This document shows, piece after piece, positions 15,926 through 55,728 of a DNA stretch of 64,000 bases (positions are counted from its first letter, which is position 1; each line of letters starts with the position of its first letter). The notes below the pieces were generated by a model. The model did no database searches. It was not told the origin of the DNA and worked only from the letters and a program-made list of their open reading frames with translations. The stretch lies in NCBI GenBank assembly GCA_965203775.1, contig OZ241913.1:3242653-3306652 (forward strand). The letters are read 5' to 3'. The stretch is from Dehalococcoidia bacterium (lineage in GTDB: Bacteria; Chloroflexota; Dehalococcoidia; Bin125). The position numbers and the translations under genes are program-made.

Positions 15926-15972
15926 GGGTTTCGTCTGGGAGAGCGAAATGTTGGTGGAAGCTCGTGGCTTCG

Positions 15973-16025
15973 CACCCCCCACCTAACCTCCCCCCTGGAA
16001 GGGGGGAGGGATGAATTGGGGAATG
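15973..16025. repeat. REP-like element, family B, isolated copy
   Basis: ccccccacctaacctcccccctggaaggggggagggatgaattgggg. Confidence 0.85.
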
Positions 16026-16080
16026 GATGAGTGTTCGGGAGGTGGGGGGTTGGATGATGGGGATGTGGGTGTTGCTGGTG

Positions 16081-16311: not shown

Positions 16312-16360
16312 GGCAGGTTCCTTCGCTGCTGGGCGGCGTGGGTGTAACAGAGCGCGGTGG

Positions 16361-38273: not shown

Positions 38274-38774
38274 TTGCCGCCGATTCTGCCGGATGGCAGG
38301 TTGCGGGCGCTGGTGCTGGGCTCGTTTCCGAGCGTGGCGTCGCTGGAAGCGGGGCAGTACTACGCGCATCCGCAAAACTGGTTCTGGCGGGTGCTGGAGC
38401 GCTGCGGGGTAATCGCGGATGCGAACGCGCCGTATGAGCGGCGGGTGGCGGAGCTGCGGCGGGTCGGCCTGGGCGTGTGGGATTTGTACGCGCGGGTGCG
38501 GCGGGAAGGTTCGGGGGACGATCGGATTCGCGACCAGGCGGTCAACCGGGTCGATCTGCTGCTGCGGGAGCGGGGGCCGTTTCCGATTTTGCTGAACGGC
38601 CGCCGGGAGCGGGAGTGGCGGCGTCATTTCGGGGGTCTGGATGCGGAGACGGCGGCGCTGCCAAGCACAAGCCCGCGTCCGCTGCATTGGAATACGGAGG
38701 AGTCGCGGGCGGCGGCGATCGGGGAGTGGTGTGAGGCGCTGTCGGTGCTCAATCGGGATACACTTGATCAGTGA
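38274..38774 (+). CDS. DNA-deoxyinosine (hypoxanthine) glycosylase, UDG family 6-like
   Basis: LVLGSFPSVASLEAGQYYAHPQNWFWRVL and LPSTSP motifs. TTG start. Confidence 0.7.
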   Translation: MPPILPDGRLRALVLGSFPSVASLEAGQYYAHPQNWFWRVLERCGVIADANAPYERRVAELRRVGLGVWDLYARVRREGSGDDRIRDQAVNRVDLLLRERGPFPILLNGRREREWRRHFGGLDAETAALPSTSPRPLHWNTEESRAAAIGEWCEALSVLNRDTLDQ

Positions 38775-38805
38775 TCATCAGGATTCGCCGCCGAGGATTG
38801 TGAAC

Positions 38806-39096
38806 ATGCCGATGCTCAACCCACCTCATCCCGGGCGCATGCTGCTGCGCGACTGCATTGAGGCGCTGGGGCTGACGGTCGCTGAGGCGGCGGAGCATCT
38901 GCGGGTGAACGAAGAGGCGCTGGCCGCGATCTGTCGGCGCGAGGCGCCGATCACGGCGGATATCGCCGTGCGCGTCGACAAGGCGTTCGGCGGCAGCGCG
39001 GAGGCCTGGCTGCGGATGCAGGTTGCGCACGACCTTGCGCAGGCGCGGCGGGATGTTGAGCAGGTCTCGATCAAGCGGATCGAGCGGGCGGCGTAG
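38806..39096 (+). CDS. higA: HigA-family antitoxin-like XRE HTH protein, copy 1
   Basis: HPGRMLLRDCIEALGLTVAEAAEHLRV...ITADIAVRVDKAFGGSAEAWLRMQVAHDL. Confidence 0.75.
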   Translation: MPMLNPPHPGRMLLRDCIEALGLTVAEAAEHLRVNEEALAAICRREAPITADIAVRVDKAFGGSAEAWLRMQVAHDLAQARRDVEQVSIKRIERAA

Positions 39097-39098
39097 AG

Positions 39099-39389
39099 AT
39101 GCCGCGTCGGATATCGCACCATCCGGGGGAGACGCTGCGCGAAGATTGCATCGAGGCGCTGGGGCTGACGATCGCTGAGGCGGCGGAGCATCTACAGGTT
39201 GACGAGCAGGCGCTCGCAGCCATCTGCGAGTGCAAGGCTCCGATCACGGCTGATCTGGCGATTCGCTTTGAGCAGGCGTTTGGGAGCACGGCGGAGCATT
39301 GGCTGCGGATGCAGGTTGCGCACGACCTGGGACGGGCGCGTGCGGTCGGCCAACGCCCGCCGATTGCGCGGATTGCGCGCCCCGCCTGA
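39099..39389 (+). CDS. higA: HigA-family antitoxin-like XRE HTH protein, copy 2
   Basis: Paralog of copy 1, 2 nt downstream of it. No higB-like ORF on either side. Confidence 0.75.
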   Translation: MPRRISHHPGETLREDCIEALGLTIAEAAEHLQVDEQALAAICECKAPITADLAIRFEQAFGSTAEHWLRMQVAHDLGRARAVGQRPPIARIARPA

Positions 39390-39422: not shown

Positions 39423-40046
39423 TCACTGGGGGCGATTGCAGGCTTTGCCGCGCCAGACGAGTGGTTTGGCGGTTTCGGCGTCTATGAGGCCGTCGATCAG
39501 CGGCGGGCAATCCGGGTCGGCGCAGGCCGAGTCGAGCTGGCGTTGCGTCAGACCGCAAGACTTGGATTGCACGCCTCCGCCGATGAAGTCGGCTCCCGAG
39601 AGATTTGCGCCCATCAGGTCCGCATTGGTCAAGTTTGCGTTTTGCAGCTTCGCGCCCGTCAGGTCGGCGTCGGTCAATGTCGTATCACCGAGGTCTGCGT
39701 ACCTCAGATCGGCGTCGATCAGCACCGCTTCGCGCAGCGCCGCTTCCTGTAGGTTGGCGCCAACCAGGTTCGTCCGCGCCAGGTTGGTGTGTACGAGTCG
39801 GGCCTGCGAAAGATTGGCTTTGCCCAGCCAGCCGTCCGAGAGATCGGCATAGGAGAGCCGCGCGTCGACCAGATGCCCCTCGATCGCCTCGAGGCCGCGC
39901 ATTCGCGCGCCGCGCCAGTCGATTCGCCGCACTTTGCGCTGCGCGGCCTGCTCAGGGTCCGTCCGAAAGGCGATCATGCCCTGCTGGTCGGGCGGCAGCC
40001 GGGGCGGGATGTCGGGCTCGTACATTGAGCGTTCAATCGCGGTCAT
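39423..40046 (-). CDS. Pentapeptide-repeat protein (module 1)
   Basis: Runs of A(D/N)LxX quintets (ANLSQARLVHTNLARTNLVGANLQEAALREAVLIDADLRYADLGDTTLTDADLTGAKLQNANLTNADLMGANLSGADF). Start at MTAIERS overlaps the upstream stop by 14 nt. Confidence 0.8.
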   Translation of the reverse strand: MTAIERSMYEPDIPPRLPPDQQGMIAFRTDPEQAAQRKVRRIDWRGARMRGLEAIEGHLVDARLSYADLSDGWLGKANLSQARLVHTNLARTNLVGANLQEAALREAVLIDADLRYADLGDTTLTDADLTGAKLQNANLTNADLMGANLSGADFIGGGVQSKSCGLTQRQLDSACADPDCPPLIDGLIDAETAKPLVWRGKACNRPQ

Positions 40047-40461
40047 GGTCGTCCTCGACTGGAAACTGGCGGAGCGCATCAAAGAGCTCCTCGACTCGGC
40101 CGCCGTAGGAGTCAGGATACTCGGCTGCGAGCCGACGCAGGGCGTTCAGGCCGGTGACGCGGATCGCCGGCACGGAGCTGCCGAGCATCTGGATGGCGTG
40201 CTGGAACCTGCCGTCGAGCAGATCGCGGTGGGCGGTATCGGCTTGCCGTTCGGCGACTCTGCTGCGCCAGATCGCGACGGGCAGAGCGATCACTGCAGCG
40301 ACGACCAGGCCGACGTTGCGGATGTCTTCCGTCTCGTCCCAGAAGAAGACCGAGACGACGATCACAGCGGCCAGTGCGAGGATGGCCAGAGGCGCCATGC
40401 CGGCCTCGGCGAGCAGCGCGGCGCGCTTGCTGAGTTCGTTGATCCGGTGGATGAGCGGCAT
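40033..40461 (-). CDS. Two-TM membrane protein with cytoplasmic helical domain (module 1)
   Basis: TM segments MAPLAILALAAVIVVSVFFW and VGLVVAAVIALPVAIW, then RSRVAERQADTA, which is conserved in the paralog at 45631-46074. Confidence 0.65.
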   Translation of the reverse strand: MPLIHRINELSKRAALLAEAGMAPLAILALAAVIVVSVFFWDETEDIRNVGLVVAAVIALPVAIWRSRVAERQADTAHRDLLDGRFQHAIQMLGSSVPAIRVTGLNALRRLAAEYPDSYGGRVEELFDALRQFPVEDDHDRD

Positions 40462-40628: not shown

Positions 40629-41726
40629 ATGACTAGCTGCGCAGAGGGTCACCACACAGCGTTCGTGATCATGCCTTTTGGCGTTGAGTTTGACGCGATC
40701 TACAAGGAGTTCATCGTCGCAGTTCTCTCAGAGGTCGGATTCACAGTCACGCGAGCTGACGAGGCGATCAGCTCCGCCAGCATCATGGCGAACATCATTC
40801 GCGGCATCAAGGAGAGCTGCATTGTCGTCGCTGACCTGACTGGCGGGAATGCGAATGTCCTCTACGAGCTGGGCTTGGCCCACGCTCTCCACAAGCCTGT
40901 CATCCACCTCACTCAAGACGTAAAGGGCCTACCTTTCGACATCAGCGGCTACCAGGCCATTCCCTACGACCGAGACTTCGTCGCGATGGGCGTGGCTCAG
41001 CGCACCCTCGCCGAAGTCGCTGCGGGTGTGCTCGGTGGCAAAACAGCCTTCGGCAATCCCTACTCCGACCACGTCGGCAAGGGGATCATTCCGTCATGCT
41101 CCACCGGGCGTTCCGCTGAGGCTGAGCAACGCCAAGAACAACAGCGGAATGGCGAAAGCGGGCCGCTCGGATTTCTTGATCACCAAACGGCGATGGAGGA
41201 GGGCTTCGAAACGATCCGAGATTCGACTGAGGAGATCGCCATCAAGACCGCTCAAGTCGACGAGAGCATGCGGAGGCTCACGACTGAGCTTAACGCCACT
41301 CAAAGTGTTCGCGGCTCTCGCCAGACACAACAGCGGCTGAAACTCATCCGGGGTCTCGCCCAGGAAATGGACGGCTACGCGGATTTTCTGTCCACAGCGA
41401 ACGGCGAGTACAGTGACGCTGTTGACCGAAGCCGACCCGCGCTCGAAGCCATGCTTGCCGCGAGCCAAGATGACCCAAACGACATCCAGGACCTCTTGGG
41501 TACTCTCGACACGGTTGAGCAGCAGGTCGTCACCTTTCATGAGACGACTAACACTGTCGCAACCGTGATCAGCGAGCTGCCGGATGTTGAGAGCTCGTTT
41601 ATGAGGGCCCGAGATCGAGTGGTCGACCAGTTGCGGCAACTGGCGGGCAACATCGCCCGTATCGTCGCGATGATCGCCCGGACGAGAGAGCTTGCTCGGC
41701 TGAAACTTGCTGAGCAAACTGAGTGA
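40629..41726 (+). CDS. Nucleoside 2-deoxyribosyltransferase-like (TIR-related Rossmannoid) N-terminal domain protein with a long C-terminal coiled-coil
   Basis: AFVIMPFGVEFDAIYKEFI ... IVVADLTGGNANVLYELGLAHALHKPVIHL (NDT-type YElG Glu motif). C-terminal 200 aa are helical and Gln/Glu-rich. Visibly lower GC than its neighbours. Confidence 0.55.
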   Translation: MTSCAEGHHTAFVIMPFGVEFDAIYKEFIVAVLSEVGFTVTRADEAISSASIMANIIRGIKESCIVVADLTGGNANVLYELGLAHALHKPVIHLTQDVKGLPFDISGYQAIPYDRDFVAMGVAQRTLAEVAAGVLGGKTAFGNPYSDHVGKGIIPSCSTGRSAEAEQRQEQQRNGESGPLGFLDHQTAMEEGFETIRDSTEEIAIKTAQVDESMRRLTTELNATQSVRGSRQTQQRLKLIRGLAQEMDGYADFLSTANGEYSDAVDRSRPALEAMLAASQDDPNDIQDLLGTLDTVEQQVVTFHETTNTVATVISELPDVESSFMRARDRVVDQLRQLAGNIARIVAMIARTRELARLKLAEQTE

Positions 41727-41811: not shown

Positions 41812-44800
41812 TCAGTCGCTTTGGCTGACCGCCTCCAGGATGGCGGCGATGCGACGGGTTGCCTCCGAGAACCAGCTTACCTCATCCAGCGTCAGCGCGC
41901 GGCCTAGGACTTTGTGGTCGCGGTAGGAGAGGTATTTTTTTAGGACTTGGTAGCCGCCCAGGCGGTATTGCCAGACGGGTTTGGGGATGTTTGACCAGTA
42001 GGTTTGGTCGTTGAGGTGGATGTTTACGGTGTCGCCGTGGTCTTCGATGCGGCCCTGGCCGGGCATTACGGCTTTGTTTGCGCCGTAGTGGCCCCAGCCG
42101 GCGGTGAGTTTGAAGTCGTCGTCTTTCATGTTGGAGCCGTCGGTTTTGGTTGGGACGGCGATATTGTGGTCGAGGAGGTCGGCGGCGTCGGACTCGGTGT
42201 CGAGCAGGCGGGCCAGGGCGCGTCCGCGCTCGGCGGAGGCGATCAGGGCGTCTCGGTCGTCGGGGAGGGGGATTCGGGGCCAGCCCATACGCAGGCCGCC
42301 GGCGTTGTCGCGCAGGTAGGAGGGATCGTGCAGGGTTGCGATGACGTGGTGGAAGAGGTCAACGGGATCGATGCGCATTGCGCCAAGGTATTGGCGAGCA
42401 TCGTCGCTGAGGTTAGCGATCCGTCGTTCGCCTTCTACTTCGACGTGGAATTGGTCGCCCTCCAATGCCAGCGGGTCTTCACGCAGGTAGAGCGGAAACA
42501 TGTTGGCGCCACGCTCGATCAGGTGCAGGCAGGCTATCTGGCCCGTGACACAGGCTTGCGGTTCGTCCTCGCCTTTTCGAAGATGCGGCGCAGCGGACAG
42601 CCAAACGTTTCCGGCGAAGACATGCGGCCGGTAGTCGGGCCGCTTCTCGTTTAGGAGCTTGGTGTCAGCTTCCCAGTACAACCATCGAACGTCGAACGGC
42701 CGATAGGCGTAGCGGATAAAGCCAGACTCTGTCGGGCCGCCGCGTTGAAGCAGCGCTCTACGCACTTTGTGAGGATCGAACCGCGCTCGGCGACCCATTG
42801 CGACAGAGTAGCGGCGTGCGATTTCGTCGTCGGGCTGGTCCGCGTCGAAGTAATCGTCGATGCGCTGCTTCAGCGGGGCAAGATCGATGTCCACGACGAA
42901 GCCATCTCGATTGGTGTTGACGCCAGAGAACTGCCGCGGAAACAGGTCGGGCAAAGCCGGCCAGCTGGACCAATCGCCGCCCGTCTTGGTCGGCGTGAAC
43001 GGCAAGCCCAACGACGGCGAGGGGCTAAGGGCGTCATAGATCGAATCCGGATCGGCGTCAGCCGTGGCCAAGAGTTCGTCGCGCTTACCGACGCCCCAGA
43101 GATTCCTGAACTGCACGACATCAGTCGAGGCGTGTTCGGTTTTGCGGATCAGCGTTGCGATCGCCGTTCCGACCTGAATGCCGACTGACTGATCATCCAC
43201 GGTGAAGATGCTCGGATCCGGTGCTCCGCTAGGCGTCCGTCCGCCTTTCCGCACATCGCCGTTGAGGTGGTCGATGCGGACGTGATCAAACTCGCGGAGG
43301 TATCGCTCTCTCATTCCCGCGAACGATCGTCCATCGAGCCACGACTGGTTCGAAATGAAACAGACGACGCCCTCGGTGGTCCTCTCAGTGATTCGCCGTT
43401 CGGCGATGCGAAAGAACCTTACGTACAGATCGTGGAGCGCCCGTGTATCCGGTAGGTCGACATCCTGTGATGTTCGGTATGCCTCAAGCATCTCGTCTTC
43501 TTCCTCGACGGCGACGCCGGCAAAGCCGTTGTAGGGCGGGTTGCCGAGCACTACGAGGATGGGGCGCTCGCGCTTGACCTCGTTGGCGCGCTCGCGTTCC
43601 TCTTCCAGCTCCGGGAACGGCAAGTCCTTGGTAACGGCTTCTTCCCAGCCGGTGAGGGCGTTGGTGAGGAAGACGGCGGCGCGCTGGTCGTCGCCGAGGG
43701 GGGCGTTCAGCTGTTCGAGGGCGAGGCCGATTTGGAGGTGTGCGACGACGAGCGGTGCGGGCATGATTTCGAAGCCGAAGACGCGGGTTTGGGCGGCCTG
43801 GCGCAGTGCTTCGCCGGCGGCGGCGCCCGAGCCCTGCAAGGACTCGGCGATGCAGCGCAGGGTTTCGACGAGGAACGCGCCGGTGCCGCAGCAGGGGTCG
43901 AGCACGACGACGCGCTGATCGGCGAGTCCGTCGGCGAGGCCGAGGTCGTCGCGCAGGGTGCGGTCGACGCGGGCGACCATGTACTGGACGATTTCGCGCG
44001 GGGTGTACCAGACGCCGAGTTGTTTGCGCAGTTCGGGGTCGAAGGCTTCGAGGAAGGGCTCGTAGAAGTACTGGACGGCTTCGCCCTGCTTGAAGCGGTC
44101 GAGGAATGTTTCGTGGTCGACGCGCGAGAGGACGGCGTCGGACCAGTCCAGCACTTCGACCAGGTCGAGGCGGCGCAGGCGGCGGCGATCGGTCAGTTGG
44201 TGGAACAGGACGCTCAATACCGGCATTTGCAGGTAGTCGACCGCGTCCTTCCAGCGGAACCGCCCGGTGTTTCCCTCTCGCACCCATAGCACCCAGGCGG
44301 CGAAGACGCCGTAGAAGAGGGTTTGCACGAGAGTTGAGCGGAAGAGTTGCGCGCCGCGCTGGTCGTCGAAGCGCATGCCCAGCGCCTGGTCGAGGGCGCG
44401 GCGGACCTGCGAGAGCGATTTTTCGTCGCTGGCGGCGTTGACGCGCTCGAGCGCGTCTCTCGCGCAGAGGGCGAGCAGTCGAGCCAGGTCGCGCGGGTCG
44501 CGAATTGGCGCGGTGTGCTGCATTACGCGCGCGAGGTACTCGCCGAGCCGCACGCCGTGGCGGTTAGCCGCCGCTTGCGGATGCCGCAGCTGTTGCTCGA
44601 ATTCCTCGATGTCCGCCGCCAGGGAATAGCGTTCGAGCACGGTTTTCGCGCCGTCGCTGTCTTCCCCAATCAGGGCGAATTGACGCAGGTTGGTTACGAG
44701 TACGAGTCGGTGCGCGCGCCAGTATCTGCCGACCTGCTCGGAGGCGATGAGCTGATCCAGGTCTGCGTCCGCGCTCTTCACTTCGACGACGCCGCGGTCG

Positions 44801-45039
44801 GCGGTGTCGGCGGTGAACAATGTCTGCTTGCCGGCGTCGGAGAAGAAACCGATGTCGGGCTGATCGGAGCCGGGTTCGCTGGGGTGGACAACGGCGCGAA
44901 CGCGCGGTTTGAGTTGCGCGCCGACAGCGTCGAAGAGGTTATCGAGCGCGGTGTAGTGGGAGAGTTCGGGGGTGCCGACGCTGCGGACTGCGGCGATCGC
45001 TTTGAGGTAGTCGCGGACGGCCTGTTTGTACTCGTTCAT
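41812..45039 (-). CDS. MmeI-like/type IIG-type single-chain restriction-modification enzyme candidate (N6-adenine MTase with N-terminal PD-ExK-like motif)
   Basis: N-terminal GVVEVKSADADLDQL (ExK-S..DLD as in the MmeI family). Motif I VVVLDPCCGTGAFLVE, motif IV VVLGNPPYNGFAG. C-terminal WQYRLGGYQVLKKYLSYRD specificity-domain-like tail. Start taken at MNEYK (ATGA overlap with the upstream PRP gene); the track start is 45078. Confidence 0.7.
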   Translation of the reverse strand: MNEYKQAVRDYLKAIAAVRSVGTPELSHYTALDNLFDAVGAQLKPRVRAVVHPSEPGSDQPDIGFFSDAGKQTLFTADTADRGVVEVKSADADLDQLIASEQVGRYWRAHRLVLVTNLRQFALIGEDSDGAKTVLERYSLAADIEEFEQQLRHPQAAANRHGVRLGEYLARVMQHTAPIRDPRDLARLLALCARDALERVNAASDEKSLSQVRRALDQALGMRFDDQRGAQLFRSTLVQTLFYGVFAAWVLWVREGNTGRFRWKDAVDYLQMPVLSVLFHQLTDRRRLRRLDLVEVLDWSDAVLSRVDHETFLDRFKQGEAVQYFYEPFLEAFDPELRKQLGVWYTPREIVQYMVARVDRTLRDDLGLADGLADQRVVVLDPCCGTGAFLVETLRCIAESLQGSGAAAGEALRQAAQTRVFGFEIMPAPLVVAHLQIGLALEQLNAPLGDDQRAAVFLTNALTGWEEAVTKDLPFPELEEERERANEVKRERPILVVLGNPPYNGFAGVAVEEEDEMLEAYRTSQDVDLPDTRALHDLYVRFFRIAERRITERTTEGVVCFISNQSWLDGRSFAGMRERYLREFDHVRIDHLNGDVRKGGRTPSGAPDPSIFTVDDQSVGIQVGTAIATLIRKTEHASTDVVQFRNLWGVGKRDELLATADADPDSIYDALSPSPSLGLPFTPTKTGGDWSSWPALPDLFPRQFSGVNTNRDGFVVDIDLAPLKQRIDDYFDADQPDDEIARRYSVAMGRRARFDPHKVRRALLQRGGPTESGFIRYAYRPFDVRWLYWEADTKLLNEKRPDYRPHVFAGNVWLSAAPHLRKGEDEPQACVTGQIACLHLIERGANMFPLYLREDPLALEGDQFHVEVEGERRIANLSDDARQYLGAMRIDPVDLFHHVIATLHDPSYLRDNAGGLRMGWPRIPLPDDRDALIASAERGRALARLLDTESDAADLLDHNIAVPTKTDGSNMKDDDFKLTAGWGHYGANKAVMPGQGRIEDHGDTVNIHLNDQTYWSNIPKPVWQYRLGGYQVLKKYLSYRDHKVLGRALTLDEVSWFSEATRRIAAILEAVSQSD

Positions 45040-45644
45040 TGTTCGCGGGGCTGCGCGTTGGGCGGCGCGCTGGGCCAAGCGAGCGGGGCGCCGGTTTGGG
45101 CGTCGGCGGCGTTGCCGAGGATGGGGGGTTCGTCGGGTTCGGCGCGTGCGCGGTCGAGTTGGGCCTGGGTGAGGCCGACGGCGGCGGCCTGGTCGTCGGC
45201 GAAGATTGCGCCGCTGATGTCCGCGCCGTCGAGGGTGGCGTCGGTGAGGTCGGCGCCCTGGAGTTGGGCGTGCGCGAGGTCTGCGTTGGTCAGGTCGGCG
45301 GTGGTCAGGTCGGCGCGGCGGAGGTCGACGGCGGCGAGGACGGCGTCGCGGAAGGTGGCGCCGGCGAGCTTGGATTTGTGGAGGCTGCCGCCGGCGAGGT
45401 CGGCTTCGGAGAAGTCGGCGTGGTTCATGCGCCCGTGTGAGAGGTCGGTTTTCCAGAGCTTGGCGCGGACGAAGTTGCCGTAGTCGGCGTCGATGCCGAG
45501 CAGCCGGCTGCCGCGCCAGTCGATCGGGACGTGATGGAGGCTGGCGGCGCGCTTGGGGTCGGTTCGGACTCTGACGATCGTCCTCCCGACGGGGCGAAGC
45601 CAGCGGCGCGAAACGAGATCCTGCACCCGTTCAGAGGTTGTCAT
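45036..45644 (-). CDS. Pentapeptide-repeat protein (module 2)
   Basis: TDLSHGRMNHADFSEADLAGGSLHKSKLAGATFRDAVLAAVDLRRADLTTADLTNADLAHAQLQGADLTDATLDGADISGAIF. The same 14-nt overlap with the upstream membrane gene as in module 1. Confidence 0.8.
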   Translation of the reverse strand: MTTSERVQDLVSRRWLRPVGRTIVRVRTDPKRAASLHHVPIDWRGSRLLGIDADYGNFVRAKLWKTDLSHGRMNHADFSEADLAGGSLHKSKLAGATFRDAVLAAVDLRRADLTTADLTNADLAHAQLQGADLTDATLDGADISGAIFADDQAAAVGLTQAQLDRARAEPDEPPILGNAADAQTGAPLAWPSAPPNAQPREQ

Positions 45645-46074
45645 CGGTGTCTCCAATGTGTTGGCTGGTCAGGTGGCGGTCTATCAGCTCGACGATCTGC
45701 GAACCGTAGGCGTCAGGATACTCGGCCAGGAGCCGCTCCAAGATCGAGAGGCCGTCGAGCTGGATTGCTTCCCGCTCGTCCTGGAGCATGCGCAAGCCGA
45801 GCTCGAAGCGAGCGTCGAGGCGGGTGGCTTCGGCGGTGTCGGCCTGGCGCTCGGCGACTCTGCTGCGCCAGATTGCGAGGGCGACGGCGACGACTCCGCC
45901 GGCGAGCAGGCCGAAGTTGCGCACTTCGTCGGACGATTGCCACCACAGGATGGCGACGATGACGATCGCGGCGAGCAGCGCGAGGGCGGCGATGGCGAGG
46001 CGCTGTTCGAGCGCCCAGAGGATCGCGCGGAGTATCCGCTCCAGCCAGTCGGCCACGGTTCGCAGGCGGCTCAT
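45631..46074 (-). CDS. Two-TM membrane protein with cytoplasmic helical domain (module 2)
   Basis: Paralog of 40033-40461 (IAALALLAAIVIVAILWW, FGLLAGGVVAVALAIWRSRVAERQADTA). ATGA overlap with the panE stop. Confidence 0.65.
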   Translation of the reverse strand: MSRLRTVADWLERILRAILWALEQRLAIAALALLAAIVIVAILWWQSSDEVRNFGLLAGGVVAVALAIWRSRVAERQADTAEATRLDARFELGLRMLQDEREAIQLDGLSILERLLAEYPDAYGSQIVELIDRHLTSQHIGDTDDNL

Positions 46075-47018
46075 GGGCGGTGGTCCAGCTGGCGGACGAG
46101 GGCGGCGAGGGTGTTGATGTTGGGTGTGGGGACGCCGAGTTGAGCGGCGCGGCGGGCGGGGGTCTCGAACATGGCCTCGACCTCCATGGGGCGTCCGTCG
46201 ATGAAATCGAGCACGGTGCTGGGGCGGTAGGGGCCCATGCCGGCGGTCATCGTGAGGTAGCGGTCGCAGAGGGCGTCGCTGTCGATGCGGGCGGGTTGAC
46301 CGCGCGCGGCGAGGTCGGCGTTGCCTGCGGCGGCGACTTCGCGCATGGCGCGGTGGGCGGCGTCGCGCAGGGCGGAGTCGGACATGATGGTTTCGGTGGA
46401 CGCGCCGCCGGCGACGACGCAGAGGCCGTTGAAGGGGATGTTCCAGCCGAGCTTTTCCCAGCGGGCTTTGAGCAGGGAGGGTTCGGGGCGGATTTCGACT
46501 TTGGAGTCTTGCCAGAGGGCGATTGCGTCGGCGAGTTGGGCGGGGGCGTCGCCGTGGTGGCCGAGGTTGAGCGCGCCGAACTCGAGGTGGAGGATTTGGC
46601 CGGGCTCGCCGCGGTGGACGCCGATGAAGGCCATGCCGCCGAAGATTTGGCGGTCGGGCAGCAGGGCGGCGATTTCGCTTTCGATGGTGAGGCCGTTCAT
46701 CAGAGCGATGACGCGGGTTTCTGGGGAGAGGAGCGGGCCGGCGAGGGCGGGGAGGGCGTCGAGCCCGGTGGCTTTGAGGCCGACGAGCAGCCAGTCGACT
46801 GGGCCGTGCGCGGCGAGCTCGTCGGGCGTGCGGGCGATGCCTGGGCTGGGCAGGTGGAGGTCGCCGAGCGGGCTGACAAGTCGGAGTCCGTCGGCGGCGA
46901 CGGCGTCGTAGTCGCGGCGGAGCAGGAAGCGGACATCGCAGCCGGCCTCGGCGAGGCGCATGCCGTAGTAGCCGCCCACCGCGCCCGCGCCGACGACCGC
47001 GACCCGTTGAGGCGGCAT
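46071..47018 (-). CDS. panE: 2-dehydropantoate 2-reductase
   Basis: VAVVGAGAVGGYYG NAD(P) fold, KARWEKLGWNIPFNGL, STVLDFIDGRPMEVEAM. Confidence 0.8.
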   Translation of the reverse strand: MPPQRVAVVGAGAVGGYYGMRLAEAGCDVRFLLRRDYDAVAADGLRLVSPLGDLHLPSPGIARTPDELAAHGPVDWLLVGLKATGLDALPALAGPLLSPETRVIALMNGLTIESEIAALLPDRQIFGGMAFIGVHRGEPGQILHLEFGALNLGHHGDAPAQLADAIALWQDSKVEIRPEPSLLKARWEKLGWNIPFNGLCVVAGGASTETIMSDSALRDAAHRAMREVAAAGNADLAARGQPARIDSDALCDRYLTMTAGMGPYRPSTVLDFIDGRPMEVEAMFETPARRAAQLGVPTPNINTLAALVRQLDHRP

Positions 47019-47021
47019 TGC

Positions 47022-48194
47022 TCAGGAACCGGCGGCCGATGCGGCGTCGGCACCGAGCAGACGCTCGAAGCGGAAGAGGTGCAGGTCGTGGCGGGAGCGG
47101 CGGTCGATGGCGAGGTCGGCGATCGCTTCGCCGATGGCGGGAGCGAATTTGAAGCCGTGCCCGGAGCAGGGGCAGGCGGCGACGATGTTGGGGCGCTTGG
47201 GGTGGAGGTCAAGCAGGAAGTGGGCGTCGGGGGTGTTGGTGTAGAGGCAGGTTTCGGCGCGGAGGATTTGGCCGGAGGCGTCGGGCAGGGTGTCGCCGAG
47301 CCAGGCGCGGATGGTGGCTTCGTCGCGGGGGTGGATGTTGCGGTCGTAGTCGGAGGGTTCGACGGCTTCGTCGGGGAAGTGGTGGCCGACTTTGACGCCG
47401 TTGCCGAAGTCGGGCAGGCCGTAGCCGAAGTCCTGGCGGCCGCGCTCCCACATCCAGATCGGCAGGTTGCCGGCCTGGAAGCGGTCGGCGTCGCCTTTGG
47501 GGCGCAGCCAGAACATCACCTGGCGGGAGACGAGCAACGGCAGCGCGAGCTTGCGCAGCAGCGAGGCGGTCCAAGCGCCGGCGGTGAGGATCAGGCGGTC
47601 GGCGGTAACTGCGCCGTCGGGGGTTTGGATTTCGATGGGGGATTCGAGGTCGTTGAGGTCGGTGGGCGTCCAGCGTTCGATTGGGGTGTCGAAGCGGAGC
47701 TCCGCGCCGTTGCGGGCGGCGAGCTCGAGCTGGGCGCCAATGCAGCCTTCGATGTCGAGCGCGCCGGCGCGGTGCTCGAAGAGGCCGATCAGCGACTCGC
47801 GCGGGGCCATCACGGGGAAGCGGCGGCGAATTTCGGCGGCGCTGAGCGGCTCGTGGGGGATGTTGTGTTCGCGGGCGCTGGCGAGCGCGCCGGGGACGAG
47901 CAGGCCGTCGGCTTCGCTGACCATCAGCGCGCCGGTCCGGCGGAGCAGTTGGCGGTCGGTCGCGGCGGCGAGTTCGCCCCACAGTTCGTAGGCGCGTTGG
48001 ACCAGCGGGACGTAGGAGGGGTCTTCGTAGTAGGCCTCGCGGATGACACGGGTGTCGCCGTGCGAGGAGCCGAGGTTGTGGGGCGGGTGGAAGCGGTCGA
48101 AGCCAACGACGCTGAGGCCGCGCCGGGCGAGCATCCAGGCGGCGGCGGAGCCCATTGCGCCGAGTCCGATGATGGCAGCGTCGTAGCGTGGCAT
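47022..48194 (-). CDS. solA: Monomeric sarcosine oxidase / N-methyl-L-tryptophan oxidase family flavoprotein
   Basis: YDAAIIGLGAMGSAAAWMLARRG, HGDTRVIREAYYEDPSYVPL, and the covalent-FAD Cys context CSGHGFKFAP. Confidence 0.75.
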   Translation of the reverse strand: MPRYDAAIIGLGAMGSAAAWMLARRGLSVVGFDRFHPPHNLGSSHGDTRVIREAYYEDPSYVPLVQRAYELWGELAAATDRQLLRRTGALMVSEADGLLVPGALASAREHNIPHEPLSAAEIRRRFPVMAPRESLIGLFEHRAGALDIEGCIGAQLELAARNGAELRFDTPIERWTPTDLNDLESPIEIQTPDGAVTADRLILTAGAWTASLLRKLALPLLVSRQVMFWLRPKGDADRFQAGNLPIWMWERGRQDFGYGLPDFGNGVKVGHHFPDEAVEPSDYDRNIHPRDEATIRAWLGDTLPDASGQILRAETCLYTNTPDAHFLLDLHPKRPNIVAACPCSGHGFKFAPAIGEAIADLAIDRRSRHDLHLFRFERLLGADAASAAGS

Positions 48195-48380
48195 GGGTGG
48201 AGTCTAGAGTTAGTCAGGGCGGCTCGAACAGGACCACCGACGCTCGGCGCATGCCACGTAAACCATGCGTAAAGCCGTCGGAAGCGCAAGACGGGCAGCA
48301 CGCCGGCTGTCGAGCGTTGCACCGCTGGCCGGCGAAAAGGTACATTGCACTACAGGACAGAGGAGAGAAAGGGGCCGCAA

Positions 48381-48671
48381 ATGAGTCAAGCGACTCCGCC
48401 GGAAGCGGGCAACCCTGCGGAACGATGCGTCAGCGAGGATGTGCGCGATGCGATGTGGGACGAGCATCAGCGGAACCTGGATTACTTCCTCAAGCATGGG
48501 CTGGCGCTCTTTGAGCAGCATCCGGATCAGTGGCTGCTGATCCACAGCGGCAGCGAAGTTGAGGGCTTCGACAATCTCGCGGACCTGTTTGACCGCTGCG
48601 ACACGTTCGGGAGTGTGCAGCGCGGTGCGGCGATGATCGAGCGACGCAAGACTGGCGCGTGGATTCTGTGA
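48381..48671 (+). CDS. Small DUF5678-like protein, partner of retropepsin-like protease 1
   Basis: SD aggaga/aagggg then ATG. Core WDEHQRNLDYFLKHGLALFEQHPDQWLLIHSGSEVEGFDNLADLF is conserved in the two paralogs. Confidence 0.65.
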   Translation: MSQATPPEAGNPAERCVSEDVRDAMWDEHQRNLDYFLKHGLALFEQHPDQWLLIHSGSEVEGFDNLADLFDRCDTFGSVQRGAAMIERRKTGAWIL

Positions 48672-49234
48672 CGCGACGAGTCCGCGGCGCGCTCTGGCCA
48701 GTTCCGCCGGCGCATCAGCTTCTTCCCGCATCTCCACCCGCCGTCGTCGCCGTCGATGTTGAGATCGGCGGCCAGTCCAAGACGGTCGACTTCATGATCG
48801 ACAGCGGAGCAGATTTCACAACTCTCGGACCTGTGGAGGCGAATGAGTTGCTCGGTGAAGAACGCTACGAAAGCCTGGACTTTAACGACCCGCAACGCTC
48901 ACTGGCGATGCACGGCGTTGGGCAACTCGCCGCTCGAGTTTTTCTCCTGGATGCTCAGATCATGTTCCGGGATGATCAAGGTCAGCGAATTCCGATACCG
49001 CTTGTGGCAGCTGTCGCCCAGCCGCTCCCCTCTCCTTCAGCGCACCGCCGCAGGGAGCGACGACGCCGTCTGGCGCGACGGCAGGGGTCGATACCGGACC
49101 TGCAAGAAGTCGAAGAGCCAGACAATTGGTGGATGCCAAACCTCTTGGGACGCGACATTCTCCACCACTTTGACCTCCATGTCAGCTACGGCGCAGATTC
49201 GGTGTCTCTGATAGAGAGGCCTTCCGGCGGCTGA
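48668..49234 (+). CDS. Retropepsin-like (clan AA) aspartic protease 1
   Basis: VDFMIDSGADFTTLG (D-S/T-G-A active site) and LLGRDILHHFDL. The GTG start overlaps the partner stop (GTGA). Confidence 0.7.
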   Translation: MTRRVRGALWPVPPAHQLLPASPPAVVAVDVEIGGQSKTVDFMIDSGADFTTLGPVEANELLGEERYESLDFNDPQRSLAMHGVGQLAARVFLLDAQIMFRDDQGQRIPIPLVAAVAQPLPSPSAHRRRERRRRLARRQGSIPDLQEVEEPDNWWMPNLLGRDILHHFDLHVSYGADSVSLIERPSGG

Positions 49235-49300
49235 GGCGCCGGGGCTCCCCATGCGGCCATCGCGCGGGTGCGGTATGCTGTATGCGCAAGGAGCGTTCTG

Positions 49301-49918
49301 ATGACCCAGCCGACGACCGTGGCGGCCGATCCGGCGCAGCGCAGCCCAGCCGTGGACGATCTGATCCGCGGCATGCACGCGGAGCGCGAGCGCAACCGCG
49401 CGTTCTTCGAGGCGCATTGCGACGATCTGTTTGCGGAGCACTCGGAAGACTGGCTGCTGATTCACAGCGGCGGCGAAGTGATTGCGTCGGACAACCTCTT
49501 CGAGTTGGCAGGCCGGCGCGAGGCGCTTGACACGGTGCCCCGTGGCGGAGCGCTGATCAAGGGACGCCCGCGACGGCTCGCTGATAAGCGCAAGCCGAAC
49601 GCTGGCGGCTCCGAGTCGCTTGACTCGCTGCCGAAGCCGCGGCTGGTGCGCAGCGGCCCGCTGAGCGACCGGGCGCGCGCCAGCGCTGAGGAACACCAGC
49701 GCAATCTCGATTTCTTCCTGGCTCACCAGGAAGAGCTGTTCGCCAAGTACCCGAAGATGTGGCTGTTGATCCACAGCGGCGGTGAAGTGGTCGCGTCCAA
49801 GGACCTGTTCGAACTCAACGATCTGCGTGAGACGTTCGACAGTGTGACGCGGAGCGCCGCCCTGTTCGAGATCAAGCGCCCGTGGCCGATGATCCCCACG
49901 CTGTTTTTCGTCCGATGA
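49301..49918 (+). CDS. Tandem-duplicated DUF5678-like protein (two copies of the small-protein domain), partner of protease 2
   Basis: SD aaggag then ATG. Contains both ...FEAHCDDLFAEHSEDWLLIHSGGEVIASDNLFEL... and ...FLAHQEELFAKYPKMWLLIHSGGEVVASKDLFEL... Confidence 0.65.
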   Translation: MTQPTTVAADPAQRSPAVDDLIRGMHAERERNRAFFEAHCDDLFAEHSEDWLLIHSGGEVIASDNLFELAGRREALDTVPRGGALIKGRPRRLADKRKPNAGGSESLDSLPKPRLVRSGPLSDRARASAEEHQRNLDFFLAHQEELFAKYPKMWLLIHSGGEVVASKDLFELNDLRETFDSVTRSAALFEIKRPWPMIPTLFFVR

Positions 49919-50403
49919 CTCGGCATATCAGAGGCGTATTTCGTCGCCACGGCCAGTACCAGCATCCCGCTGCCCCACTGGCCGCCTACGTCAATGTCGT
50001 GGTGGGCGAAAACGACCCGCCGCGCAGTGTGGATTTCATGATCGACACCGGCGCTGATTTTACGACGCTGGCGCCGCGCGACACTCTCAGACTGCTTGGG
50101 CGGGCTTATGGGAACATTGACTTTGGGGACCCAGCAAGCAGTATCGAGTCGATCGGCGTTGGCCACGCTGGAGCGCGCCTGATTAGGATCTCGACGCAGC
50201 TGCAATTCACAGACGACGCAGGTGGGCATCTCACCATCGAAATTCCTGTCGCAGTCGCCGAGCCTGTCCCTCCGCAACCCGGCGCGCATGGCAACTGGTT
50301 AATGCCGAGCTTGTTGGGGCGGGATGTGCTTCAGTATTTCGACTTGCAGCTGGGCTATCACCCGCCTTCGGTGGTGCTGGAGGAGGCGTCGGCGGGCGGC
50401 TGA
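49915..50403 (+). CDS. Retropepsin-like aspartic protease 2
   Basis: VDFMIDTGADFTTLA and LLGRDVLQYFDL. ATGA overlap with the partner stop. Confidence 0.7.
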   Translation: MTRHIRGVFRRHGQYQHPAAPLAAYVNVVVGENDPPRSVDFMIDTGADFTTLAPRDTLRLLGRAYGNIDFGDPASSIESIGVGHAGARLIRISTQLQFTDDAGGHLTIEIPVAVAEPVPPQPGAHGNWLMPSLLGRDVLQYFDLQLGYHPPSVVLEEASAGG

Positions 50404-52632: not shown

Positions 52633-55600
52633 CTACTTGAGCAGCTGGGCGACGAGGCGCTCGACCTGCTGGCCTTCGGCGCTTTGGGCTAGCCAGTTGC
52701 GGATTTCGCGGCGGGCGATGGTGGCGGTGGTGGGTTTGCCCTGGACGGCGCGGATGGTTTGGACTTCCTGTAACAGCGCTGTTGCGCCTGCGGTTGCTTC
52801 GACTGCGGCGGCGGCGATGTCTCGGTGGAGGGGATTGTGGTCGTCGTACTCGGGGATGGGGAGGCGCCAAGGATGTTTCAGCACGTGGCGGGCACCAAAC
52901 TGTCCTTTGGGCATCAGCGGCGCCAGCTTGACTTCAAGCGCTGTGCTGTTCAGCACGGCCACTAGAAAATTCGCCTCGGCGATAGACACTGTGTCAACCC
53001 AGTAAAGCGTTTTGTCGAAAACGGCGTCACGATCTCCGACTATCGCTGCCGTCGGGCGACCTGACGAACCGTAGACGACGCGATGCGTGTCTCCCCGTTG
53101 TCTGAGCTCGGTATCCTGCGCGGTCAGCTTACCCATGTAGTCGAGCTGGCCAAGCAGATCGAGCTTGTTGTTCACGCTCTTGTGCTGATCCCAGAGTCGA
53201 TTGACGACACGCCAGCGACGACGCATCCGATCGCCGAGATGAGTTGGATCGAGCCCTAGCAGCCCACTCTCCTTTCTGACGAGGCCGCCTGTTCGGTGGG
53301 AAAGCGGCAGCACCGCGTAGAGCGGCTCCAGCAAGACGTATGGAGCTAACGTCTCACCCAGATAAACGGCCCGGACATGCGCGGTCTCGATCGGTCGACT
53401 TGAGAGATCGAGCAGGTCGAGCGTCTTCCACGGGGCCTTCTCTTGGCTCGATCGCCGGTGAGAGACCGTAATGATGTCGGCAGCGCGGACAGCTACTCCT
53501 GACGCCTCCTTGTTCACGAAGAAAAGCGACCGCGGGTAGATGGTCGCTCCTTCTCGCGCACGATCCCCATATGGTGACGCAAACTCACCTGACGTATCGA
53601 CCAACGGGACATCCTCGTGCGTGAATGGTCCACCAGGCTCGCCGCGCCAGCGGTCAGCCGTTTTAGCTAACGGTGTTGCTGATCCGTCTGTGCGGCGGAG
53701 GAAGCCCACACAGGAGGGCACCGGAAAGAATGTGTTGGGCTTGACCCGCTCAAGATCCCACGGCTGGCGCAACGAGAAATCGACGCGCGTGGACCCCCAG
53801 TCTCCCCCGCGCCACTTGCGATATTGGCCGCTCTGTAGCGCGCTGTGGGGGAGTACCATCGCCGCGACGCCGCCCGGCTTGAGATAGAGATCGACGCAGC
53901 GTGTGAAAAACAGTCCCGCCACATCTTGATTAGAGGCGTAGCGTCCGCCGGTCCAAATCTCATAGGTCGACTTGCTTTGTTGCTCCAGCTCTGAGCGCAA
54001 GACCGCCGCAGTGCGGTTGTAGGTGAGCCAGGGCGGGTTGCCGACGACTACGTCTACGGGGTCGGCGCGGAGGGCGATGGGGCGGACGAGGTTGCGGGCG
54101 TAGTAGGCCCAGATGTGGTCGCGTCCGTCGGCGTGGAGGCGAGCGAGAGTGTCGGCGGTGCGTTCGAGCATCGGGCGGTCGGCGTCGTCGGGGATGCCGA
54201 CGTCGTCGAGCGCCTGGCGCGGGTCGCCGCCCTGTTCGAGTTCTTCGGCGAAGCGGGTCATAAGGCTATCGAACCAGTCGCCCTGCTCGACGAGAGCGCG
54301 GGGAAATTCGAGGCTGAGGTTGCGCTCGAGATCGCCGTCGTCGTTTTCGATCTCGATCGTTACGGTGCTGCTGGCGAAGAGGCCGGAGGTCTCGGTGCGC
54401 AGCTGAAGCGAGTCGCCCAGGTAGATGGGGACGGTGACGTCGTCCGCGCCGGCGCCGCGGGCGCGTTCGAGTGCTTCGCGGGCGGCGAAGGTCCAGGTGG
54501 CGCGGGCGAGGTGGACGGCGGCGGGGTGTACGTCGATGCCTGTGACGTGGGTGAGCAGTCCGTCGAGCACGCGGGCGGGTTTGCGGCGCGCGGCGCGGGC
54601 GGCGGCGAGATACTTGCGCACGGCGGCGAAGATGAATGAGCCGGAGCCGCAGGCGGGGTCGAGCACGCGCTGGTTGAGCGGGTCGGTGACGACGGCGTCG
54701 ACGATTTCGCGGGCGAGCCAGTCGGGGGTGTAATACTCGCCGAGTCGGCGGCGGTCGTCGGCGGGGATGACGGTTTCGTAGAGGATGCGGGCGACATCGG
54801 ACTCGGCGCGGGTCCAATCAAAGCGGTCGACGCGGCGGGCGAGACCGCGCAGCCATGCGCCGCCCTCGACTTCGGCGGGCCAGGTGAAGAAGTCGGACTC
54901 GACGACGCCGCGCACGCCGGTTTCGTTAACGAATAGCTGGCCGTTGAGCAGTTCGGCGGGGTCGCGCTGCGCGTATTGGACGATATTGATGCCGAAGGCG
55001 GATTGCAGGGCGAGCGCGACGACGGCGGAGAGGTAGGTGTGGCGGAGGAACAGGTCGTCGAGGTTATCCTCGTGCTCGATCACTTCGCCCAGCGCGGCGG
55101 CGAGCAGTTGCCGCCAGAGGCGGCGCTTAATCGCGATGGTGGGCTCGTCGCGGCGCTGCTCGTACAGCTCGCGGAGCGACTGGAGGTGCTGCTCGAAGCG
55201 CGGGCCGGGACCGAGCCGTTTACGCACCTCCCCATCAGTGGGAGTCAGTTCGCTGCGCTCCAGTGCCTGCGATTCGTCGCGCAGCCATTCGTAGAGGTTG
55301 TAACCGCGGTTGGCGTCTTCAAGCGTGAAGGCGTAGGGCGGCGCGGCGCTCCAGGCGGCGGCGCCAGGGCGGCGCAGCAGCCAGTACTTGCCGTCGGTGA
55401 GGATGCCGAGACGGGGCGGTTTGCCATCGCGGGCGAGCGCGCGGAGGTAGTGGTCGAGTTGCTGTTTGTTATCGTCGGTGGCGTCGAGTCGAGTGCCGAT
55501 TCGGCGCTTAACCTCGATCACGAGGTCGTCGGATTCCAGGTCGATTCTGCCGCCGCCGGCCTTGCTTTCCATCTGGATATCGGCGCGGCGGGCGAGTTTG

Positions 55601-55728
55601 GCGGCGACCAGAAAGTCGCGCAGCGCGCCGCGAATATCGGCTTCCGAGGTGTTGTCGGCGTGGCGGTCGAGCAGCGTCTGGGCGCTGCGGCGGAGCGCCG
55701 GGCTTTCCGGGGTGATCTCGCGCGTCAT
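52633..55728 (-). CDS. MmeI-like/type IIG-type single-chain restriction-modification enzyme candidate 2 (N6-adenine MTase with N-terminal PD-ExK-like motif)
   Basis: RIDLESDDLVIEVKRRIG (D-x8-E-x-K), motif I RVLDPACGSGSFIFAAV, motif IV VVVGNPPWLTYN. Large C-terminal region, visibly lower in GC. Confidence 0.7.
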   Translation of the reverse strand: MTREITPESPALRRSAQTLLDRHADNTSEADIRGALRDFLVAAKLARRADIQMESKAGGGRIDLESDDLVIEVKRRIGTRLDATDDNKQQLDHYLRALARDGKPPRLGILTDGKYWLLRRPGAAAWSAAPPYAFTLEDANRGYNLYEWLRDESQALERSELTPTDGEVRKRLGPGPRFEQHLQSLRELYEQRRDEPTIAIKRRLWRQLLAAALGEVIEHEDNLDDLFLRHTYLSAVVALALQSAFGINIVQYAQRDPAELLNGQLFVNETGVRGVVESDFFTWPAEVEGGAWLRGLARRVDRFDWTRAESDVARILYETVIPADDRRRLGEYYTPDWLAREIVDAVVTDPLNQRVLDPACGSGSFIFAAVRKYLAAARAARRKPARVLDGLLTHVTGIDVHPAAVHLARATWTFAAREALERARGAGADDVTVPIYLGDSLQLRTETSGLFASSTVTIEIENDDGDLERNLSLEFPRALVEQGDWFDSLMTRFAEELEQGGDPRQALDDVGIPDDADRPMLERTADTLARLHADGRDHIWAYYARNLVRPIALRADPVDVVVGNPPWLTYNRTAAVLRSELEQQSKSTYEIWTGGRYASNQDVAGLFFTRCVDLYLKPGGVAAMVLPHSALQSGQYRKWRGGDWGSTRVDFSLRQPWDLERVKPNTFFPVPSCVGFLRRTDGSATPLAKTADRWRGEPGGPFTHEDVPLVDTSGEFASPYGDRAREGATIYPRSLFFVNKEASGVAVRAADIITVSHRRSSQEKAPWKTLDLLDLSSRPIETAHVRAVYLGETLAPYVLLEPLYAVLPLSHRTGGLVRKESGLLGLDPTHLGDRMRRRWRVVNRLWDQHKSVNNKLDLLGQLDYMGKLTAQDTELRQRGDTHRVVYGSSGRPTAAIVGDRDAVFDKTLYWVDTVSIAEANFLVAVLNSTALEVKLAPLMPKGQFGARHVLKHPWRLPIPEYDDHNPLHRDIAAAAVEATAGATALLQEVQTIRAVQGKPTTATIARREIRNWLAQSAEGQQVERLVAQLLK

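Follow-up and report, generated by a model that had tools for sequence, protein, structure and literature searches.

A membrane-anchored pentapeptide-repeat protein, split into two genes, beside a single-chain restriction enzyme in a Dehalococcoidia defence hot spot

Two halves of a membrane-anchored pentapeptide-repeat protein

The stretch of DNA considered here, 64,000 nucleotides from a Dehalococcoidia bacterium (Chloroflexota; metagenome-assembled genome GCA_965203775.1, contig OZ241913.1, positions 3,242,653 to 3,306,652) and referred to throughout as the window, carries a string of overlapping minus-strand genes in which a small membrane protein and a pentapeptide-repeat protein (PRP) precede a single-chain restriction enzyme. 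Read in the direction of the genes, a solA-like gene (47022-48194) is followed by panE for ketopantoate reductase (46071-47018; Pfam ApbA, 8.9e-36, and ApbA_C, 8.4e-22), by the gene for MEM1, a 147-aa protein with two hydrophobic helices by hydropathy (45631-46074), by that for the 202-aa PRP1 (45036-45644; Pfam Pentapeptide, 9e-21) and by that for a 1075-aa enzyme of Type IIG/IIL (41812-45039; assigned by Pfam, PADLOC and motif positions). Beyond the enzyme lie a plus-strand gene for a 365-aa TIR-like or nucleoside-deoxyribosyltransferase-like protein (40629-41726; PADLOC TIR effector, 8.4e-10) and, again on the minus strand, paralogues of the first two proteins, MEM2 (142 aa, 40033-40461; BLASTP, 5e-32) and PRP2 (207 aa, 39423-40046; BLASTP, 3e-43; Pfam Pentapeptide, 1.2e-26). 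This second pair lies 5 kb downstream of the first, so that the enzyme is flanked by two pairs.

The initial annotation regarded the membrane protein and the PRP as separate partners of the enzyme. They are instead the two halves of one membrane-anchored pentapeptide-repeat protein (hereafter membrane-PRP), which is a single chain in most relatives and has been split in this lineage at a disordered linker. A profile search with the MEM domain returned 2607 representative clusters (E<=1e-3), and among the best 149 representatives most are 300-450 aa long, with the MEM domain N-terminal and the pentapeptide repeats C-terminal. At all loci outside the syntenic site that hold a complete gene (the compared loci are numbered L001 onwards), the two parts form one open reading frame, and fused copies also occur at syntenic sites, namely the downstream copy of L002 (365 aa) and the third copy of L008. 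PRP1 aligns collinearly with the fused homologues across their linker, PRP and tail.

An alignment of the fused members defines the architecture from end to end. The first transmembrane helix (TM1) is followed by a short loop with a conserved (T/V)RN at its end, by TM2 running into the helix AIWRSxVAERQAxTAQ, by a HEAT-like helix pair (LLNERYQKGAEMLGS..VRLGGIYAL.RLA.EHP..YH.QIM) and by an acidic, variable linker; the C-terminal part consists of two cap helices (REDVQAVM...), 3-6 pentapeptide coils and a conserved tail, GLTQxQxDxAxAxxxxPPxLxGVxDAxTGxPLVWRG. MEM1 displays the features of the N-terminal part (a two-transmembrane (2-TM) hairpin with the RN motif ahead of TM2, together with the conserved AIWRSRVAERQA helix and the HEAT-like helices), and the tail of PRP1 reads GLTQxQLDxAxAxPDxPP...PLxW. 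Conservation is highest within and close to the membrane hairpin (W45, R52, N53, W69, R70 and the AIWRSRVAERQA helix). An AlphaFold2 model of the fused homologue P0324, built from a 27-sequence alignment (predicted local distance difference test score (pLDDT) 86, predicted template-modelling score 0.74), shows TM1, TM2 with its long helix, the HEAT-like pair, a disordered linker (119-144), the cap helices and a beta-helix of about 3 coils. PRP1, modelled with PRP2 only, fused homologues having misaligned its N terminus, gives a beta-helix of about 5 coils over residues ~42-147 with a core pLDDT of 75-90 and termini of low confidence. Both termini of the hairpin are predicted to be cytoplasmic, because there are two transmembrane helices with arginine-rich flanks on both sides (positive-inside rule).

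The N-terminal module is absent from current family collections. No Pfam or NCBIfam model matches the MEM half, the PRP half has only generic pentapeptide matches in both, and MEM1, PRP1 and PRP2 have no match in PADLOC-DB v2; the sole hairpin match there, of MEM2 to a 4TM effector (E=0.0057), is not significant. A Foldseek search of the P0324 model against the PDB and BFVD returned generic PRP beta-helices at low template-modelling scores and nothing for the N-terminal module. The combination of 2-TM hairpin, AIWRSRVAERQA helix and HEAT-like pair, found in ~2600 clusters, is a defined domain that the models of Pfam, NCBIfam and PADLOC do not cover.

Re-reading of the junctions showed the genes and overlaps originally reported to be correct. 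The panE stop and the MEM1 ATG overlap as ATGA, the MEM1 stop (45631-45633) lies 14 nt within the PRP1 gene, whose ATG is at 45644, and the PRP1 stop (45036-45038) overlaps the enzyme ATG at 45039, again as ATGA. A TTG at 45078 is an alternative enzyme start that would yield 1088 aa and a 43-nt overlap with PRP1; the ATG is preferred because the closest homologue (P0042, 93% identical) is likewise 1075 aa long. The accompanying caution, that overlap alone is weak evidence of linkage, was well placed: ATGA overlaps are commonplace and here run on into panE, where they reflect tight gene packing only. The 14-nt overlap is conserved rather than a product of chance, because it is the same in both paralogous pairs, which are 45-49% identical, and in the orthologous loci L001 and L002. 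The PRP2 ATG likewise lies 14 nt within MEM2, an exact match to the first pair (junction CATGACCGCGATTGA), at 49% identity between MEM2 and MEM1 over 92 aligned residues and 45% between PRP2 and PRP1 (BLASTP). MEM2 is preceded by an intergenic region of its own and is oriented away from the TIR-like gene. A programmed frameshift making a fused protein at the 14-nt overlap was considered and rejected, as no slippery sequence was seen and each half has its own ATG; coupling by termination and reinitiation would be the simpler reading. A scan of 39.3-48.5 kb for promoters and terminators found no more signals than in shuffled sequence and is therefore uninformative on transcription units.

The PRP had been likened to the DNA mimics Qnr and MfpA. 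The beta-helix fold bears this out, the Foldseek matches of the P0324 model being PRP structures only, whereas family scores, coil number and charge speak against it. NCBIfam scores are 33-34 bits for Qnr (cut-off 240) and 27-31 bits for MfpA (cut-off 360), and Foldseek ranked MfpA and Qnr below cyanobacterial Np275-type and designed or synthetic PRPs, with low template-modelling scores throughout. With about 5 coils in PRP1 and about 3 in the fused P0324, and as the C-terminal half of a 2-TM membrane protein, the helix departs from the Qnr/MfpA type, a soluble tail-to-tail dimer of 8-10 coils that covers a segment the size of a DNA gate. Net charges calculated from sequence are mildly acidic (-4 and pI 5.8 for PRP1, -5 and pI 5.1 for PRP2), with acidic coils at residues 101-180 and a basic N-terminal stretch of 40 residues, and the C-terminal parts of 100 fused relatives have a median pI of 5.05. 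Apart from the shared fold, nothing ties the protein to the DNA-mimic PRPs.

Membrane-anchored PRPs have non-defence roles in cyanobacteria, HglK being an example. A housekeeping or envelope role unrelated to restriction or defence, with the gene order an accident of a compact genome, would accord with overlaps that run on into panE and solA and with nearest fold matches that are cyanobacterial PRPs of unknown function. Adjacency to restriction-modification (RM) genes nevertheless recurs in five phyla, as described below, and the gene is patchily distributed even among close relatives, associated with insertion sequences and carried on plasmids and a prophage; we regard such a role as very improbable.

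The restriction enzyme and the solA-panE site

Pfam matches of the 1075-aa protein comprise N6_Mtase, MmeI_Mtase, Eco57I and Type_ISP_C (E=2.6e-46), and its PADLOC matches are to REase_MTase_IIG (5e-100 and 8e-84, the latter spanning residues 168-1075). A pattern search located a putatively catalytic PD...ExK nuclease motif (QPDIGFF, aa 60-66, and VVEVKS, aa 84-89; window 44773-44862); the methyltransferase motifs I (DPCCGTGAF, aa 381-389; window 43873-43899) and IV (NPPY, aa 500-503; window 43531-43542) are both intact, and a Type_ISP_C specificity domain occupies window ~41887-42948. The closest solved structure is DrdV (7LO5, E=1.2e-34, residues 315-929), followed by the methyltransferase regions of the Type ISP enzymes LlaGI and LlaBIII; the matches to the latter two are limited to those regions, and no helicase family is among the Pfam matches. 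One chain holds a nuclease, a gamma-class N6-adenine methyltransferase and a specificity domain, with no ATP-dependent translocase. Judged by its sequence, this is a DrdV-like Type IIG/IIL enzyme, intact and self-sufficient, whose target recognition domain (TRD) is of the Type ISP kind. It has >8000 homologues and adds one more unexceptional member to a known class. The term MmeI-like, under which it was first described, suits its architecture and misses its family: MmeI_N, MmeI_hel, MmeI_TRD and MmeI_C are all lacking, the TRD is Type_ISP_C, and the MmeI_Mtase match is weak (30.4 bits against a cut-off of 27). The enzyme of L025, in contrast, matches all five MmeI Pfam domains.

The TRD is the variable part of the gene. 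Window ~42360-43255 cannot be aligned at the DNA level to L010 or L012, while its flanks are 79-85% identical, and the L008 enzyme gene has 89% DNA identity to the window except at ~42420-42673; outside the TRD segment, orthologous enzyme genes are 79-89% identical at the DNA level. A non-aligning TRD amid conserved flanks is the usual signature of specificity switching and suggests that TRDs have been swapped in this gene.

The gene string makes up the variable content of a defence hot spot bordered upstream by solA-panE. Both border genes are kept, ahead of differing contents, in L001-L005, L008-L012 and L014, and the other flank in related Dehalococcoidia consists of HigA/HigB, uracil-DNA glycosylase (UDG) and CoA-transferase genes. 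Between the flanks, the window and L012 have a pair, the enzyme, the TIR-like gene and a second pair; L001 and L010 have the same order with a different TIR-type gene; L002 has a pair, a T5orf172 gene, the enzyme and a fused copy; L008 (OZ241849.1), whose MEM1 is 99% identical to that of the window, has a pair, the enzyme, a fused copy and a pair; L011 and L014 have a pair only; and L005 has the enzyme only (68% identical and overlapping panE directly), followed by DUF4365. Over 40-44 kb of the window, GC content dips from ~0.69 to 0.62-0.64. Since enzyme alone, pair alone and both together occur at one and the same site, neither part requires the other. The idea that the pair is specific to the window enzyme was accordingly rejected, on these three combinations and on the intermixing of restriction partner types in the MEM tree discussed below.

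The TIR-like gene at 40629-41726 is convergent with the enzyme gene, lies in the low-GC stretch and encodes a long helical C-terminal part; its Pfam match to Nuc_deoxyrib_tr (4.7e-6) is under the cut-off. It travels with the cassette only in part of the loci, being absent in L008 and L002 and having an 87% identical orthologue in L012. Other TIR-type genes stand beside homologous enzymes in L001 (same position, CAP12-PCTIR_TIR) and L006 (HTH+TIR_2), and enzyme and TIR gene may form a separate recurrent pairing. Towards the far flank, at 38274-39389 on the plus strand, a UDG-superfamily gene (38274-38774) precedes tandem HigA-like helix-turn-helix antitoxin genes (38809-39096 and 39099-39389); no HigB-like toxin, present at this place in syntenic loci, was found in the window. 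On the other side of solA, at 48345-50403 on the plus strand, are two consecutive, mutually similar gene pairs (108+191 aa and 216+173 aa), in which the second members carry a D(S/T)GA retropepsin-like motif with a weak Asp_protease_2 match (E=0.0014) and the first members could be assigned to no family.

Restriction partners and mobility of the wider family

Whether PRP and membrane genes recur beside such enzymes in other genomes was the check proposed with the initial annotation, and they do, though facultatively. A MEM-motif scan of species-representative genomes yielded 20 loci and context look-ups of further homologues another 9, with neighbours annotated by tblastn and Pfam; the same MEM alignment found a single 1.3-kb contig in metagenomes and nothing in viral contigs. 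Counts given here are over the 19 loci that lie off the solA-panE site and have both flanks. A restriction gene is present within 2.5 kb of the membrane-PRP gene in 11 of these, and in 9 of the 19 it encodes a single-chain IIG/IIL enzyme of one of two families. L007, L020, L022, L023, L025, L026 and L033 have the two genes adjacent and co-oriented, and in seven of the RM-adjacent loci the gap between genes on the same strand is -4 to +65 nt. The RM-adjacent loci belong to Latescibacterota, Acidobacteriota, Nitrospirota, Gammaproteobacteria and Dehalococcoidia.

The restriction partners are two unrelated IIG/IIL families, one Type I operon and Mrr. A Type_ISP_C IIG gene lies directly upstream in L007 (with a 4-nt overlap), L020 (Latescibacterota) and L022 (Dehalococcoidia, at another site), 2.3 kb upstream in L038, together with Mrr, and as decayed fragments in L034; in the protein P0254 a Type_ISP_C fragment precedes the MEM and PRP parts in one chain. 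A true MmeI-family enzyme is encoded directly upstream in L025 (Gammaproteobacteria; 4-nt overlap), L027 (Bryobacterales; a fragment) and L033, where five tandem membrane-PRP paralogues follow, and directly downstream in L026 (Terriglobia). In L023 (Nitrospira) Mrr lies 5 nt upstream. L016 (Latescibacterota) has a Type I operon in the order hsdM, a 281-aa gene, membrane-PRP, hsdS, a 251-aa gene, Shedu, Schlafen/AlbA and hsdR.

Three of these neighbourhoods deserve description in their own right. The L016 genes (6502-18475) form a compact multi-system island in a metagenome-assembled genome, Shedu being represented by SduA_C and Schlafen by AlbA_2-HATPase. In L033 (1539-10766), from a 1.83-Mb genome, the MmeI-family enzyme has 931 aa and the paralogues, all on the same strand, have 395, 371, 244+104, 415 and 375 aa. 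In L015 (4665-16514) the membrane-PRP gene stands between a Gabija-like pair (OLD-family ATPase/TOPRIM and UvrD) and a gene for a 1135-aa Helicase_C protein, which is followed by one for a 596-aa MZB/DUF1998 protein (a DISARM-like core).

Outside the lineage, the membrane-PRP family is found beside restriction genes far above genome background. Binomial estimates, for which the background frequencies are our own assumptions, give P ~1e-14 for any RM gene at 11 of 19 loci against a 2% genome background, and P ~1e-7 to 4e-5 for IIG/IIL enzymes at 9 of 19 if 5-10% of defence-island genes have such neighbours.

The link to restriction characterises the subfamily nearest to the window; the family as a whole is accessory and mobile. 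More distant homologues, whose MEM domains are 27-40% identical and which are annotated as pentapeptide repeat-containing proteins, are encoded on 43 Streptomyces, 2 Kitasatospora, 1 Calothrix and 1 Verrucosispora plasmids; in the plasmid contexts sampled, parA lies beside two, a Type I-E CRISPR-Cas system near one and a gene of a Pycsar-effector family near one. A match to the MEM domain (E=3e-8) is also found at the N terminus of the 407-aa hypothetical product of gene 39 in the Mycobacterium abscessus prophage prophiT49-1 (L039, 5001-6224). The gene runs against the direction of those around it, with a serine recombinase next to it and a DNA methylase 4 kb away, as is typical of accessory genes in prophages. 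Near-identical membrane-PRP copies lie by IS110, rve and other transposases in L019 and L021, both in one Marinacidobacterales genome, and in L035, from an unrelated genome of 10.4 Mb, which suggests recent transposon-borne spread. Patchy presence, association with insertion sequences (IS) and carriage on plasmids and a prophage are signatures of accessory, mobile genes. Plasmid-borne anti-restriction as the primary role, suggested by the Streptomyces plasmid homologues beside parA, was considered and set aside, since only this location speaks for it.

Such a distribution also raises an autonomous defence or exclusion gene, one that blocks the entry of DNA or joins a PRP sensor to a transmembrane-hairpin effector and only travels with RM genes. 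Copies do occur in defence islands beside systems other than RM (the Gabija-like pair of L015; Shedu and Schlafen/AlbA in L016), as solitary genes on plasmids of Streptomyces, Verrucosispora and Calothrix, in the M. abscessus prophage as a reverse-oriented moron, and as near-identical IS-adjacent genes in different genomes (L019, L021 and L035), and all three presence/absence combinations are seen at the solA-panE site. Immediate, co-oriented adjacency to IIG/IIL genes in 8-9 of the 19 loci is nevertheless well above what generic co-residence in islands would give, on the assumed backgrounds; co-translation is indicated by start/stop overlaps between the membrane-PRP and enzyme genes of the window, L007 and L025; and neither half matches a PADLOC model. 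We hold this autonomous role to be unlikely.

Candidate roles and comparison with known systems

We tentatively favour the possibility that the membrane-PRP protein is a facultative restriction accessory, which docks the enzyme at the inner membrane through its beta-helix as a safety catch, a positioning device or both; the inhibitor or switch envisaged in the initial annotation, a DNA mimic that might let go of the nuclease when the envelope is perturbed, is contained in this proposal. With both hairpin termini in the cytoplasm, a beta-helix of the size of DNA would hang from the inner membrane and could dock onto the DNA-binding surface of the enzyme. Some of the enzyme would then stay at the membrane, near the entry point of foreign DNA and apart from a chromosome that is transiently unmethylated, until real DNA displaced the beta-helix, the net effect being either inhibition (safety catch) or positioning. 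One-strand-modifying single-chain enzymes such as DrdV have a recognised self/non-self problem after replication (bioRxiv 10.1101/2021.01.06.425610), and because they face this problem an accessory of the kind would have a rationale. The apparent preference for single-chain methyltransferase-nuclease enzymes of two unrelated families, together with the start/stop overlaps, would favour such an accessory.

A number of observations weigh against it. Enzyme and membrane-PRP can each do without the other, the enzyme occurring without MEM/PRP in L005, as does a homologue in L006, and MEM/PRP without the enzyme in L011 and L014. The window itself holds a second IIG-like gene (52633-55728, minus strand, 1031 aa; N6_Mtase 6.7e-12, Eco57I 7e-7), which, as in L001 and L002, follows alpha/beta-hydrolase and DinB-like genes and has no PRP or membrane gene beside it. 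Seven of the 19 loci have no RM gene nearby, six of them (L017, L019, L021, L035, L036 and L037) being adjacent to an IS or transposase and L018 not; the seven sampled actinomycete and cyanobacterial plasmid homologues and the one prophage homologue also stand alone. The RM excess becomes marginal (P ~0.06) when a 25% island background is used and events are collapsed for shared ancestry. On a neighbour-joining tree of the MEM domain the RM partner types are intermixed with no sign of co-evolution, which speaks for several independent associations rather than partner-specific co-evolution. The beta-helix is short (~5 coils in PRP1 and ~3 in P0324) and only mildly acidic, and five tandem paralogues beside one MmeI enzyme in L033 look like a diversifying sensor family more than a stoichiometric tether. 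Finally, McbG and QnrB failed to inhibit BREX, which has a methyltransferase of related type, and Ocr did inhibit it (PMC7261183).

Several of the same observations suit a guard, or abortive-infection module, comparable to PrrC in EcoprrI, in which the enzyme holds the beta-helix until phage anti-restriction frees it, whereupon the hairpin oligomerises, damages the membrane and kills the cell. The PrrC anticodon nuclease embedded in the EcoprrI locus is an RM-linked latent abortive-infection device. Membrane-PRP genes lie inside or beside RM operons of four different kinds, and all four kinds are known targets of phage DNA mimics. The enzyme occurs without the membrane-PRP (L005, L006), as expected of a second-line module; the most conserved residues are in the hairpin region, which suggests a hairpin that is more than an anchor; and the five-paralogue array of L033, with the promiscuity of partners, fits a diversifying sensor. 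That PRPs are players in the arms race is shown by a phage PRP directed against a defence system (bioRxiv 10.1101/2024.07.02.601686). On the other side, the protein has no domain recognised as toxic or pore-forming, its single PADLOC match being that of MEM2 alone to the 4TM effector (E=0.0057), and copies without an RM gene nearby would be unguarded toxins or dead genes. We consider a guard of this general kind unlikely. Its specific form is more doubtful still: the beta-helix would sit in the DNA cleft of a Type I, MmeI-type or DrdV-type partner and, when displaced by phage anti-restriction DNA mimics or by massive incoming DNA, a membrane lesion made by the hairpin would abort infection, so that a DNA mimic of the host would serve as a tripwire and not as an inhibitor. 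In order of decreasing probability, we rank the restriction accessory first, then an independent defence gene, then a PrrC-like guard and last the absence of any relation to restriction or defence; a guard or an independent defence gene would account for the observations about equally well as an inhibitor that mimics DNA.

The initial annotation noted that no system of this composition was known to have been described, and our literature searches found no pentapeptide-repeat/restriction association of this kind; the two flanking membrane-PRP pairs and the cross-phylum link of the family to restriction enzymes both appear to be undescribed. We know of no protein partner of single-chain one-strand-methylating enzymes, and how they spare fresh host DNA is, to our knowledge, an unsolved problem. 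The membrane-PRP is a candidate regulator or localiser of restriction, or a candidate second-line guard; should either role prove true, it would represent a new component class in restriction-modification biology, and pentapeptide repeats would gain a role in host immunity beyond gyrase protection. PRPs are already known as accessory domains in predicted immunity proteins (PMC10853773), and a phage PRP counteracts the Sucellos defence system (bioRxiv 10.1101/2024.07.02.601686).

Among characterised systems, DrdV (PDB 7LO5/7LVV) has the same N-terminal PD-(D/E)xK nuclease, gamma-class N6-adenine methyltransferase and C-terminal specificity domain as the window enzyme, at only distant sequence similarity, and the MmeI family sensu stricto resembles it in overall architecture and size; as far as our literature searches show, no membrane-PRP companion has been described for either. 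LlaGI and LlaBIII (PDB 5FFJ and 4XQK) have a homologous methyltransferase and Type_ISP_C domain (E=8e-27 and 1e-24) in chains of 1406-1578 aa, compared with the 1075 aa of the window enzyme, which lacks their helicase/translocase; the absence of that domain and the shorter chain therefore set it apart from the ATP-dependent Type ISP enzymes.

For the accessory protein, the gyrase-protecting MfpA, Qnr, AlbG and McbG share the right-handed quadrilateral pentapeptide beta-helix, but the MfpA/Qnr type is a soluble dimer of 8-10 coils, whereas the window PRP has ~5 coils and is tethered to a 2-TM hairpin. That a DNA-shaped protein can occupy the site where Type I and BREX-type methyltransferase complexes bind DNA has a precedent in Ocr and ArdA (PMC7261183); unlike the membrane-PRP, these two are encoded by invaders, soluble and much more acidic, and they are unrelated to it in sequence and fold. 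PrrC differs in that the membrane-PRP has no nuclease or ATPase domain, its putative effector being the membrane hairpin. In genetic arrangement, the two are alike: PrrC in the EcoprrI Type I locus is an extra gene in or beside an RM operon that restriction does not need, and the membrane-PRP genes likewise lie in or beside RM operons, as between hsdM and hsdS in L016, and appear dispensable for restriction, the enzyme standing alone in L005 and L006.

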